Source: a virus
Taxonomy: Duplodnaviria > Heunggongvirae > Uroviricota > Caudoviricetes
Direction: 5' to 3' (one strand)
IMG/VR virus record: IMGVR_UViG_2778261349_000008
Span: 1 to 40,068 of that record
Length of the DNA stretch: 40,068 nt
The position numbers and the translations under genes were made by a program. The notes below the pieces were generated by a model. That model was not told the DNA's origin, made no database searches, and worked only from the letters and a program-made list of their open reading frames with translations. This document shows, piece by piece, positions 1,705-39,060 of this stretch; the first letter of the stretch is position 1; every line of letters starts with the position of its first letter.

Positions 1705-1777
1705 ACATCTACTTGAAGCGGCAGGGGATTGATTGGAATGGTGTTTTTTAGATGTGAGAAATATTTTACCCGCTATT

Positions 1778-1978
1778 TTACCCATTGGCGCGGCTTAAGA
1801 GCTTATTTTTGAATTCACAATGGTCACGATATAACCATCTTGCTCGCCCGTGGATAACTTTGGCTTTTGGCAGGTCGCCGGACTTAATCCGGTCATAGAT
1901 GAAGGTTTTACCGAAGCCAGTATCGGCCATGATGAATTTCAAATCAACCAGTGAATCAGGCTGTAGTTCGTGTTGCAT
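1778..1978 (-). CDS. torI: Excisionase / recombination directionality factor, AlpA-like winged-helix protein (TorI-like)
   Basis: 66-aa ORF MQHELQPDSLVDLKFIMADTGFGKTFIYDRIKSGDLP... matches my recollection of KplE1 TorI; ATG preceded by GGAG; sits beside attL and across the att junction from the integrase. Confidence 0.7.
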   Translation of the reverse strand: MQHELQPDSLVDLKFIMADTGFGKTFIYDRIKSGDLPKAKVIHGRARWLYRDHCEFKNKLLSRANG

Positions 1979-1997
1979 GAGTGCTATCTCCGAATAG

Positions 1998-2013
1998 GGA
2001 ATCGAACCTGCAA
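1998..2013. repeat. Second argW-derived 16-bp segment (ggaatcgaacctgcaa, T-arm region of the tRNA), about 20 bp upstream of the torI start
   Basis: Exact 16-bp match to 39000-39015 inside argW; in the intact tRNA this segment directly abuts the 15-bp core, here it is separated from the core by the torI gene. Confidence 0.7.
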
Positions 2014-2023
2014 ATCAGGCAAT

Positions 2024-2052
2024 AAAAAACCGCCATCAGGCGTTTTTGTGTT
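2024..2052 (-). terminator. Putative rho-independent terminator at the end of the early-left operon (short GC stem followed by a T-run on the minus strand)
   Basis: cgcc/ggcg stem with ttttttatt on the minus strand, downstream of the 2304-2951 gene; the stem is short, so weak. Confidence 0.3.
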
Positions 2053-9450: not shown

Positions 9451-10327
9451 GTTAGCTGATTACAGGCATAACCCTGTACAACATCAGGAGGCATCCAGTA
9501 TGGGGTATGTCTCTATACACCGCCAGTTTATGGACAGCAGGCTCTATAAGGACTCTCAGGCAGTACATCTTTGGCTTCACTTAATCCTCAAGGCTAATCA
9601 CGAATCTACTGTCGTCAATACGGATATCGGGCCGATAACTGTTGATCGCGGTCAGATGATAACTGGACGCCCGTCGCTGGTCAGAGAAACATTCATCCCC
9701 GACAACAAAGTTCGGAGCTTATTGCGGACTTTTGAGTCGAAAGGGATGCTTAATATTTGCTCGATGGGGAAGAAATTTAGCCTGCTTACAATCGTTAAAT
9801 ATGACGATTTTCAGGCAAAAAATTGTCCAACGGTTGTCCAACGGTTGTCCAACGCAAACACCAGTAATGGCGCGGCTCTCAGCGGAGATTGTCCAACGGT
9901 TGTCCAACGGTTGTCCATAAACAATAATATAAATAATATCTCTAATACTGACGTATTAGAGAGTGCCACAGCAGACAAAAAGTCTGACAAGAAAAAACCT
10001 TCCGTTAGCTGTCAGGATGTTGTCGATGCTTACCACGAAATCCTTCCTGAAGCGCCAAGAATCCGCGCACTGAATGACAAGCGTAAAAACCAGATCCGAA
10101 CGTTCTGGCGCAAAGCCGGAGTGATAACCCGCCAGCTTGACGGGCATGGTTTCACGATGCAGGACTGGAGAAATTATTTGAGCTACGTAGGCGAAAATTG
10201 CCGATGGATGTTCGAAGAGCGCCCAAACCATCAGCGCGGAACCGTCTGGCACAAAAAGGGATTTGATTTCCTGCTTAACGATAATACCTACCTGAAAGTT
10301 CGTGAGGGTGAACACGATGACCGATAA
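9437..10327 (+). CDS. Replication initiation protein, lambda O-like (P22 gene 18 analogue), containing the origin iterons
   Basis: 296-aa ORF after c1 in the PR operon; AGGAG RBS; internal iteron arrays and an AT-rich stretch as in lambda ori inside O. Confidence 0.75.
   Translation: MGVVKLADYRHNPVQHQEASSMGYVSIHRQFMDSRLYKDSQAVHLWLHLILKANHESTVVNTDIGPITVDRGQMITGRPSLVRETFIPDNKVRSLLRTFESKGMLNICSMGKKFSLLTIVKYDDFQAKNCPTVVQRLSNANTSNGAALSGDCPTVVQRLSINNNINNISNTDVLESATADKKSDKKKPSVSCQDVVDAYHEILPEAPRIRALNDKRKNQIRTFWRKAGVITRQLDGHGFTMQDWRNYLSYVGENCRWMFEERPNHQRGTVWHKKGFDFLLNDNTYLKVREGEHDDR
9823..9921. repeat. Putative replication origin: two clusters of three 11-bp direct repeats (TTGTCCAACGG) followed by an AT-rich segment
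   Basis: ttgtccaacgg x3 at about 9823-9855 and x3 at about 9889-9921 (last copies degenerate), then aacaataatataaataatatctctaatac. Confidence 0.75.
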
Positions 10328-15736: not shown

Positions 15737-15811
15737 GGGTCAGTCGTATAAAGGTCATTACGGAAGGCTGTTAACCTTCTTATCGTGGTTCGAGTCCACG
15801 CTGTCCCGCCA
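15737..15811 (+). tRNA. Phage-encoded tRNA candidate, anticodon GUU (Asn)
   Basis: Hand-folded cloverleaf: acceptor stem with one mismatch, GG in the D-loop, perfect 5-bp anticodon stem with loop cuGUUaa, T-arm cgtgg-TTCGAGT-ccacg, 3' CCA encoded. Confidence 0.5.
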
Positions 15812-15816
15812 AATAT

Positions 15817-15892
15817 GCTGGTTTATCTCCAATGGTAGAGCAGTCGCCTTGTAAGCGAATGGGTAGCGGTTCAAGTCCGTTAACCAGCACCA
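15817..15892 (+). tRNA. Phage-encoded tRNA candidate, anticodon UGU (Thr)
   Basis: Hand-folded cloverleaf: perfect 7-bp acceptor stem gctggtt/aaccagc, anticodon loop ctTGTaa, T-loop TTCAAGT, 3' CCA encoded. Confidence 0.55.
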
Positions 15893-37666: not shown

Positions 37667-38824
37667 TCACTCCACCTTTTCATCAATCCAGTCCGCCCAC
37701 CACTGCATCATTTCTCTGCGCTTATCGAGATACTGAGCATGGTTGTAAATCCCGCGCACAGATCCGCCGTTGGCATGTGCCAGTTGCACTTCAATAGCGT
37801 CAGCAGGCCATTCGTGCTCGTTCATAATCGTGCTGAATTCATGCCTGAATCCGTGACCGCTTTCCAGACCCTCATAGCCGATTTGTTTGATCACAAGTAG
37901 CACCGCGTTCTCGCAGATTGGCTTCTTCTTATCGTTGCGTCCGGCAAAAACAAACTCTGATACTGGTTTAGTGATGGAGCTTAGCGTAGTGAGAAGTTCA
38001 ACCACCTGGTCCGACATCGGGACCACATGAATCTTGCGTCCCTTCATCACACTGGCGTCGATGGTGATAATCTTGTTTTCAAAATCGACGTTCTTCCATT
38101 GCATGGAACGAAGCTCTTTCGTTCTTAGGGCTGTGTAGCGTAAAACCTTGGTGGCAATGAGCGATACGATACTTCCTGAAAATGTTGCCAGTGCTTTGTT
38201 GAATTCCGGGATCTGGTCTGCAGGAAGAAACGGGAAGTTCTTCTTGCGGTATCCCTTCATGGCGTCAGCAAGGTCAGGTGCCGGGTTATATTTAGCCCTA
38301 CCAGTGACAATAGCGTAACGGAAAACCTCGCCGCATCTTCTGCGTGCTTTGTTGGCTCGCTCCATTGCGCCGCGATCTTCAAATCTGCGGATTACTTCCA
38401 GCAGTTGCATCGGCTCAATATCCTGAATTTCAAGGCCGCCGATGATAGGTAAAATGTCGTCATCAAACATTTTTGCAAGTTCATTCGCATACCCTACTGA
38501 CCAGACTTGCTTCTTGTGCTCGTACCATTCCTTGTAAATCGCACTAAAGGAATTGTTGTTAGACGAAGCCTTTTTCGCTTTTACCGGATCGATGCCAACC
38601 GAGATGTCTTTCCTCGCGGTCCATGCTTTATCTCTTGCCTCCTGCAAAGTCATTAGCGGATATTTTCCTACGGTCAGGATTTTCTCCTTACCGTCAATCT
38701 TGTAGCGAAGCTGCCATACCTTTTTACCTGACACAGGGACATAAAGGTACAGGCCATTACCATCGAGTAGGCGGTATGGTTTTTCTTTCGGCTTTGCTGC
38801 TTCAATCTGCTTAACGGTGAGCAT
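37667..38824 (-). CDS. intS: Tyrosine integrase, P4-type (KplE1/CPS-53 IntS-like)
   Basis: Matches my recollection of K-12 IntS from MLTVKQIEAAKPKEKPYRLLDGNGLYLYVPVSGKK...; C-terminal catalytic region with R...HxxR...Y; directly next to argW in the same orientation; the listed ORF start at 38860 is an upstream GTG. Confidence 0.85.
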   Translation of the reverse strand: MLTVKQIEAAKPKEKPYRLLDGNGLYLYVPVSGKKVWQLRYKIDGKEKILTVGKYPLMTLQEARDKAWTARKDISVGIDPVKAKKASSNNNSFSAIYKEWYEHKKQVWSVGYANELAKMFDDDILPIIGGLEIQDIEPMQLLEVIRRFEDRGAMERANKARRRCGEVFRYAIVTGRAKYNPAPDLADAMKGYRKKNFPFLPADQIPEFNKALATFSGSIVSLIATKVLRYTALRTKELRSMQWKNVDFENKIITIDASVMKGRKIHVVPMSDQVVELLTTLSSITKPVSEFVFAGRNDKKKPICENAVLLVIKQIGYEGLESGHGFRHEFSTIMNEHEWPADAIEVQLAHANGGSVRGIYNHAQYLDKRREMMQWWADWIDEKVE

Positions 38825-38985
38825 GGGTAAAAATCCGGTGGGTAAAATTATTTTATCCACTTTTTACCCGTCATGGAGTGCGGATGTCAACGATCTGACG
38901 CGAACCATTACGAACTGTGAATCTACGGAAGGCTTGATATTCAGGGGATTTTGCGGACTGGTACGGATGGGAGAGAACTGATAAA

Positions 38986-39000
38986 TGGTGTCCCCTGCAG
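38986..39000. repeat. attR core: 15-bp direct repeat (tggtgtcccctgcag), the 3' end of argW
   Basis: Identical to 1690-1704. Confidence 0.8.
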
Positions 39001-39060
39001 GAATCGAACCTGCAATTAGCCCTTAGGAGGGGCTCGTTATATCCATTTAACTAAGAGGAC
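38986..39060 (-). tRNA. argW: tRNA-Arg (anticodon CCU)
   Basis: Reverse complement reads GTCCTCTTAGTTAAATGGATATAACGAGCCCCTCCTAAGGGCTAATTGCAGGTTCGATTCCTGCAGGGGACACCA: 75 nt, cloverleaf with anticodon loop CTCCTAA and 3' CCA. Confidence 0.9.

Follow-up and report, generated by a model that had tools for sequence, protein, structure and literature searches.

A copy of the argW T-arm in the torI leader is the Escherichia coli form of a leader cassette conserved across genera

The excisionase gene torI of a P22-like prophage carries in its leader an exact 16-nt copy of part of argW, the tRNA gene that the prophage occupies. The copy is not specific to this strain: it is a conserved, phage-borne piece rather than a strain scar, and what is new here is that it represents the E. 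coli form of a 25-nt torI-leader cassette conserved across genera. We place good confidence in the features demonstrated below (a genuine argW copy, its placement in the leader and its position outside the attachment site), together with the origin that we infer for it. As an overall explanation we lean, on the comparative evidence, toward an ancient argW fragment at the edge of the recombination module that has probably been kept for the control of torI in cis. The cassette offers a concrete target for the study of torI control, which reportedly decides excision (PMC2951348), and the repeat has misled annotation, the CUS-3 reference record having been cut there. Nothing in the finding lies outside known biology.

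The window, i.e. the whole stretch of 40,068 nt that was analysed, is mostly filled by the prophage, which is integrated in argW and carries an IntS-TorI module of the KplE1/HK620/Sf6 type. Both the prophage and its recombination module are of an ordinary, well-described kind, another member of the KplE1/HK620-type set. A defining trait of modules in this set is that integration and excision depend on IntS, TorI and IHF. ARAGORN places argW, encoding tRNA-Arg(CCT), on the minus strand at 38986-39060. There is one integrase gene in the prophage, intS (37667-38824, minus strand), identified by Pfam and by identity to HK620 Int. Its product, a P4-like tyrosine integrase of 385 aa from the ATG with an N-terminal arm-binding domain (Pfam domains Arm-DNA-bind_3, Phage_int_M and Phage_integrase), is close to IntS/HK620 Int and shares 377 of 385 residues (98%) with HK620 Int. 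The excisionase, or recombination directionality factor (RDF), is encoded by torI (1778-1978, minus strand), which was recognized as an open reading frame and by identity; all 66 residues are the same in HK620 HkaC and Sf6 gp18, the protein is the same as the RefSeq product named TorI, and a Pfam search with it gave no match at E <= 0.001. From left to right, the left end of the window reads permease, short flank, core, torI, 16-mer, hairpin with T-run, and phage early genes. The permease ORF (1-1248; complete, 415 aa, sugar/H+ symporter type) belongs to the prophage flank, where K-12 has dsdC, and near the right end a tailspike gene encodes a P22-type head-binding domain. The prophage also contains adjacent genes for tRNA-Asn(GTT) and tRNA-Thr(TGT) at 15737-15892 and, at 9811-9917, two iteron-like clusters of 11-bp direct repeats (ATTGTCCAACGGTTGTCCAACGG…), which may be the phage replication origin.

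The 16-mer GGAATCGAACCTGCAA occupies 1998-2013, and its minus strand reads TTGCAGGTTCGATTCC, positions 47-62 of argW. Exact copies occur in the window only there and at 39000-39015, inside argW, so the repeat reported in the initial annotation is real. A chance match can be ruled out: allowing up to 2 mismatches, one expects 0.03 matches and observes 2, a number that none of 100 shuffles reached. The right copy spans the end of the variable loop, the 5' T-stem, the T-loop and two bases of the 3' T-stem. Within argW the 16-mer and the 15-nt core abut and share one base, G39000, a small refinement of the description of the segment as directly following the core in the intact tRNA. At the left end the two are separated by 293 bp (1705-1997) with torI in between; the tRNA-derived sequence is thus split as had been described, at a distance first given as about 290 bp. 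Identity to the tRNA ends exactly at both edges of the 16-mer, which contains the decamer GTTCGATTCC whose conservation is described below (GTTCGATTYC, argW G53-C62).

The left copy belongs to the leader of torI, whose ATG follows 19 nt downstream. The Shine-Dalgarno (SD) sequence GGAGA (1987-1991, minus strand) comes 6 nt after the copy and appears as a near-invariant GGAGAT in an alignment of 24 leaders. The copy forms part of a 25-nt cassette, TTTGCAGGTTCGATTCCCTATTCGG (1990-2014, minus strand), that is a clean indel relative to leaders lacking it. Further upstream, a terminator-like hairpin, CGCCTGATGGCG followed by a T-run (2021-2042, minus strand), marks the end of the early-left gene block. 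The hairpin is common to HK022, where it is annotated as the tL4 terminator, and HK140, where it is annotated as a rho-independent terminator; its stem has 4 pairs only, for which reason our terminator scan missed it. The 16-mer sits between the last early-left terminator and the torI ribosome-binding site and is the outermost piece of a module that runs cassette, SD, torI, arm, core, arm, intS.

The initial annotation had both the promoter and the 5' UTR of torI overlapping tRNA-like sequence. The part concerning the leader stands; for the promoter, a simple consensus scan of 1600-2400 (-35/-10 hexamers, 16-18 nt spacing) finds no sigma-70-like site, which an activator-dependent promoter could escape. 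Such a promoter is in fact annotated over this stretch in related phages, as a 'phage integration' promoter with a cII site in HK620 and as pI in Sf6. Lambda cII sites have a spacing of 6 (TTGCN6TTGC), whereas the TTGC repeats here are 5 nt apart and lack conservation in other lineages. Between the end of the element and the SD there are 6 nt, with no space for a -10 hexamer and a transcript start. A cII-activated, pI-type promoter is therefore a most improbable account of the element. The lambda pI/cII control of int resembles the present case in its location, ahead of the recombination genes and where the pL operon ends, and differs from it in that here there are no promoter-like hexamers, the TTGC spacing is off and the stretch precedes xis instead of lying inside it.

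The working attachment site is elsewhere. The core CTGCAGGGGACACCA(T) is duplicated at both ends of the prophage at the argW 3' end, with int and xis at opposite prophage ends. The left copy, TGGTGTCCCCTGCAG at 1690-1704, is the reverse complement of the argW 3' end and forms the junction of prophage and chromosome on the torI side; the right copy, also TGGTGTCCCCTGCAG, is its direct repeat inside argW (38986-39000). The att repeat is 15 nt long here, not 16, the flank on the permease (cscB) side differing at the 16th base. For free phage genomes, which carry attP (HK620, HK633, Sf6, Kapi1, N7 and others), 1690 is the exact point from which they are homologous to the window, and what stands left of the core in HK620 and Sf6 is the window's right junction. 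Where argW is unoccupied in other E. coli genomes, the sequence agrees with the window flank as far as 1704 and is tRNA beyond that point. Because phage homology starts at 1690 and empty sites match to 1704, the crossover takes place at the 15/16-nt core, as already published (PMC2951348, PMC8787464) and as assumed in the initial annotation; the 16-mer is not the crossover sequence.

Nor does the 16-mer belong to the minimal functional arm. In vitro, a 135-bp torI-side arm (attR) suffices for excision, its inner primer being attR-IHF2 (PMC3509656). This primer maps to 1782-1801 of the window, so that the arm takes in no more than the final 24 nt of torI, and the 16-mer lies ~200 bp beyond the end of this minimal arm at 1801. 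About a third of related argW-targeting modules are also without the element. The 16-mer is no component of the minimal att site, and the suggestion that the excisionase gene is embedded in att reduces to the published xis-attP-int layout (PMC2951348, PMC8787464). In the naming of the Ansaldi laboratory, the intS side is attL and the torI side attR, the reverse of the usage in the initial annotation.

The torI-side recombination arm (1705-1801, minus strand) contains two GGGTAAAA repeats, on the minus strand at 1764-1771 and 1776-1783, together with the inverted core bases CCCCTGC. From their behavior across lineages, the GGGTAAAA repeats are putative IntS arm-type sites: the repeats by the xis stop and those at the int promoter (38840-38880) change together, GGGTAAAA versus GGGCATAA, as would be expected for sites of this type. 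Other lineage forms of these paired repeats are TATACA-type and GATGGTAT-type (L012, L013, L119, L121, L142 and L167), and the first GGGTAAAA-type repeat overlaps the torI stop codon. On the other side, the stretch from the core to the intS promoter contains blocks of TorI sites, which on the reverse complement of 38880-38985 run CAGTTCT, CAGTCCG, CAGTTCG, GGTTCG, AGATCG, followed by TTGACA, a layout that matches the published one (PMC2951348).

The initial annotation had considered that the 16-bp segment might be a chance relic absent from related sites. Comparison with K-12 KplE1 and other strains finds the split arrangement recurring, with the 16-mer at the same place, in K-12 KplE1, HK620, Sf6 and the CUS-3-type prophage of IHE3034. 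The KplE1 (CPS-53)/HK620/Sf6/CUS-3 module agrees with this prophage in its integrase (98%), TorI (100%) and core at the argW 3' end, and also in having attP between xis and int, the TorI-site blocks and the GGGTAAAA arm repeats; the 16-mer is present in all, and there is no structural difference from this prophage. These five close relatives (the window, K-12, HK620, Sf6 and IHE3034) are 94-100% identical from the core to ~2028 and are therefore uninformative on any constraint on the 16-mer. Across a wider set, 79 of 84 E. coli-type loci keep it exactly, and the five exceptions are all singletons; singleton mutations fall inside the 16-mer at about the same density as in the rest of the leader in these modules, and retention at this level fits weak purifying selection or simply low diversity.

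The initial annotation also raised the possibility of two successive integrations at argW. In this reading the T-loop of argW served as a second attachment or crossover site in a separate integration, and a direct tRNA repeat does flank all of the prophage except torI. The CUS-3 GenBank record CP000711 (L001/L002) even starts and ends at the 16-mer, labelling the copies 'attL core' and 'attR core'. Prophages identical to the CUS-3 right end (IHE3034, UTI89 and others; L008:681-881) carry torI and the real core just outside the limits of that record, however, so the record was cut at the wrong repeat; CP000711 lacks the excisionase gene and the true 15/16-nt core. Moreover, the prophage has a single integrase, 98% identical to HK620 Int, and the T-stem symmetry that such a crossover would need is not kept. 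The junctions that it would leave were not found: argW-16mer-torI deletion junctions occur in none of 5426 E. coli genomes, and no IMG/VR contig has core, 16-mer and phage sequence contiguous. Successive integration, for which we find no support, with one integrase, no 16-mer junction and an old element, is possible as a remote origin, and a second attachment site is very unlikely.

The informative comparison comes from more distant modules. Homologues of the excisionase were collected from phage records (L009-L013), from one genome per species (L014-L034) and from IMG/VR (L035-L201). A scan of IMG/VR with a TorI alignment kept 80 loci, every one a 100%-identical E. coli copy; the diverse loci were supplied by the genome scan together with the Emek and phiEt88 queries. 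Each collected locus either has the order xis, ~250 bp, int or represents the xis end of a prophage, and all readable downstream sequences carry a core of the TGCAGGGGAC type that tracks the host tRNA. An exact GTTCGATT within 45 nt of the start codon is found in 63 of 94 distinct upstream regions from across Enterobacterales, with 6 more degenerate and ~25 lacking it. In most argW-targeting modules, the decamer sits 3-9 nt upstream of the excisionase SD. It occurs in Escherichia, Salmonella, Citrobacter, Enterobacter, Serratia, Pantoea, Erwinia and Edwardsiella, and in diverged modules with the motif, Xis is 36-88% identical while the motif is at the same place.

When 24 diverse leaders were aligned, the GTTCGATT columns were 100% identical, a figure conditioned on these leaders having been picked for carrying the motif (the unconditioned figure being the 63 exact and 6 degenerate of 94). 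The 5' flank averages 62% identity, the next eight columns on the 3' side 77% and the SD 90%. The motif with the leader that follows it reads TTGCAGGTTCGATTCCC in E. coli, CCAGGTTCGATTCCTG in Serratia, CCGGTTCGATTCCTG in Pantoea, GACAGGTTCGATTCCCTGTC in Edwardsiella and P. stewartii, CCAGGTTCGATTTCC in Citrobacter, TAGGTTCGATTTCTA in Enterobacter, CCAAGTTCGATTCCC in the Salmonella Emek group and CTAGGTTCGATTCCC in Erwinia phiEt88. In Erwinia phage Midgardsormr38 the motif stands twice upstream of xis, in tandem at a 16-nt period (AGGTTCGATTCCCGTCAGGTTCGATTCCC; L009:2157-2187). Uninterrupted identity to argW runs to 16 nt in E. coli (T47-C62) and to 15 nt in Serratia (C50-G64), and many other loci reach 13 nt. 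Because these runs extend differently by lineage, the ancestral module would have carried at least T47-G64 of argW at this place, the flanks then decaying in each lineage as the decamer held.

About a quarter to a third of the modules are without the cassette, including Chronis, EhrS_49, Dryocola and L191-L201, and it is therefore dispensable. Leaders lacking it (HK140, Dryocola, L191-L201) run from the terminator through TTTTTGCCTGG|AGA to the ATG, and relative to HK140, L194 and Dryocola L022 (...GCCTGG|AGA...) the cassette amounts to 25 extra bases; HK140 has a different integrase. Homology to lambdoid phages with other integration modules starts at 2016-2020, only 2-6 nt outside the 16-mer: at 2016 for HK140 and HK106 and at 2020 for HK022 and mEp213. 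Near-identical leaders precede different xis genes in Citrobacter L021 and L172, pointing to leader exchange between modules, and recent common descent may therefore account for some of the apparent conservation. Just upstream of the cassette, K-12 (L004:1540-1640) and Salmonella Emek (L012:2100-2165) retain the first ~17 codons of another AlpA/P22-Xis-like gene (…SLTLDEAC.FLKIS), presumably the remnant of a displaced integration module. Since the start of lambdoid homology, the indel, the leader exchange and this xis stump all coincide here, the cassette is the outer edge of the IntS-TorI module and travels with it.

This setting gives weight to the view that the 16-mer is an inert relic, a one-time capture of argW at the module junction (by aberrant excision or an illegitimate join, for example) that has no present function. 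Its conservation would then be apparent only, the leader being a 'boundary sequence' swapped among lambdoid and P22-like phages. We regard this as a serious alternative, if an unlikely one. The mosaic boundary falls exactly there, the Sf6 record AF547987 annotates torI and the adjoining stretch as boundary sequence bsq2, exchanged leaders and a clean 25-nt indel missing from many modules are what it leads one to expect, and singleton mutations are tolerated. Against it, the decamer is invariant in the 24 leaders when the adjoining columns (homologous on the 3' side) are only 70-90% identical, and it persists though Xis diverges to 36%; a neutral 10-mer is not expected to outlive its flanks.

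Several schemes for the origin of the element were considered. A torn-off piece of core beside the 16-mer was sought, and GGAGATAGCA and GGGGACACCA agree at 7 of 10 positions after a 2-nt shift, a marginal likeness that is unconserved elsewhere and a hint at most. An integrase-mediated join of argW CC|TGCAGGG with the linker CC|TGGAGAT of leaders lacking the cassette predicts TTCC|TGGAGAT, whereas the leaders have 5-7 extra bases, so this scheme fails. The simple schemes worked out on paper, whether tandem integration of prophages or transducing-type, aberrant excision, each put intS, not torI, beside the T-arm.

The most likely mechanism would be that the decamer serves as a DNA site controlling torI in cis, recognized by the recombination proteins that the module itself encodes. 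A protein-binding regulatory role of this kind is possible but doubtful, judged from the leader comparisons. The decamer consists of the tRNA bases bordering directly on the attP/attB identity block (C62/T63), the place expected for a B-type core half-site, and integrase anchored on the GGGTAAAA arm sites downstream of torI could contact the torI leader through it. It also contains GTTCG, the published TorI recognition pentamer, which could be read by the excisionase itself. The identity block starts at C62 or T63 in every lineage, and cassette-bearing modules have the argW target in common despite differing arm-type and RDF repeats.

The pentamers GTTCG, GATCG and GTCCG define TorI sites, GTTCG is the one that was mutated to abolish them, and TorI represses the intS promoter (all PMC2951348). 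A further candidate is an operator at which the excisionase would bind GTTCG in its own leader and so autoregulate torI. CAGTTCGA and GGTTCGAT match I-sites at 7 of 8 positions, a second GTTCG/GTCCG lies 12 nt downstream, overlapping the SD, in Enterobacter, P. stewartii and Edwardsiella, and Midgardsormr38 has its two copies in tandem. The distribution, however, speaks against it: phiEt88 and L182, L188, L189 and L192 keep GTTCGATTCC though RTTACC-type repeats replace the GTTCG sites, Chronis and EhrS_49 have GTTCG repeats but lack the cassette, and the motif does not covary across lineages with the type of RDF site in the int-side arm repeats. In addition, conservation continues as far as ATTCC, which has no counterpart in I-sites, and GTTCG is always followed by A, not C or T. 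We consider a TorI operator improbable; from the comparisons, a B-type half-site fits the distribution best and a TorI site less well.

A specific form of the half-site reading has the decamer as a leader copy of the attB 'B' half-site to which arm-bound integrase reaches back, looping out torI (225 bp). This too appears quite unlikely. If it were true, the low, autoregulated IntS of a lysogen would lock torI off, which would explain a silent excisionase in modules whose int and xis are uncoupled in transcription. Binding by integrase would not by itself require the decamer to be invariant, because attP C half-sites vary freely (TTAGGTGCC, GTAGATGTC, TTCGATGTA). Control of the RDF gene is the key step still to be explained in modules of this kind (PMC2951348).

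Another reading places an RNA element in the torI transcript, with either a T-arm-like hairpin or an anti-SD stretch gating translation or processing. AUUYCC can pair with GGAGAU, and T-arm-like stems form, by chance, in Serratia, Edwardsiella and Enterobacter. Yet RNAalifold gives a consensus energy of -0.24 kcal/mol, T-stem pairing is 43.7% against 44.1% in shuffles, and the E. coli leader folds with z = -1.6. For the torI-leader 16-mer there is no Rfam match at gathering score and no ARAGORN tRNA call. Neither a conserved T-arm nor an SD-sequestering hairpin gains support from the consensus fold, the stem pairing or the leader z score, and an RNA role is extremely unlikely.

The KplE1 IntS-TorI recombination module was reportedly described by Panis, Mejean and Ansaldi in 2007, and work by Menouni in 2013 is said to deal with Rho control of torI. 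In the literature on the module we found no T-arm copy upstream of torI, split tRNA or cross-genus conservation of the decamer; Panis 2007, King 2007 and Menouni 2013 may mention them. Elements integrated in tRNA genes can have a displaced 3' fragment of the tRNA at their far junction, as reportedly described by Reiter et al. in 1989 (cited in PMC8787464) and Williams in 2002. Like them, the 16-mer is tRNA-derived, in direct orientation and at the int-distal end, but such fragments are normally the core itself and contiguous, whereas the present copy is an additional segment from further 5' in the tRNA, set 293 bp into the element and carried along in free phages (HK620, Sf6). For the joints between modules of lambdoid phages, the concept of 'boundary sequences' reportedly goes back to Clark et al. 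in 2001. Sf6 bsq2 likewise marks a mosaic joint and is common to phages with differing neighbor modules, but it is defined by phage-phage similarity only, and its tRNA-derived, base-conserved outer end is absent from that annotation.

One further observation concerns the torI-side arm of the IntS-TorI module, which is described in Panis et al. 2010 (PMC2951348) and for Kapi1 (PMC8787464). We found no mention in the literature on the module of a core-base inverted repeat in this arm. An inverted copy of the core bases, CCCCTGC(A)-N17-22-TGCAGGGG, is present there (in the window, 1697-1704 with ~1724-1731), and it changes with the host tRNA, reading CCCCTACA/TGTAGGGG in Rouxiella and TCCCTGCA/TGCAGGGA in Edwardsiella (L018-L032, L009-L013). 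These compensatory changes suggest a functional inverted repeat, which might be a pair of protein sites or a hairpin in the xis 3' UTR.
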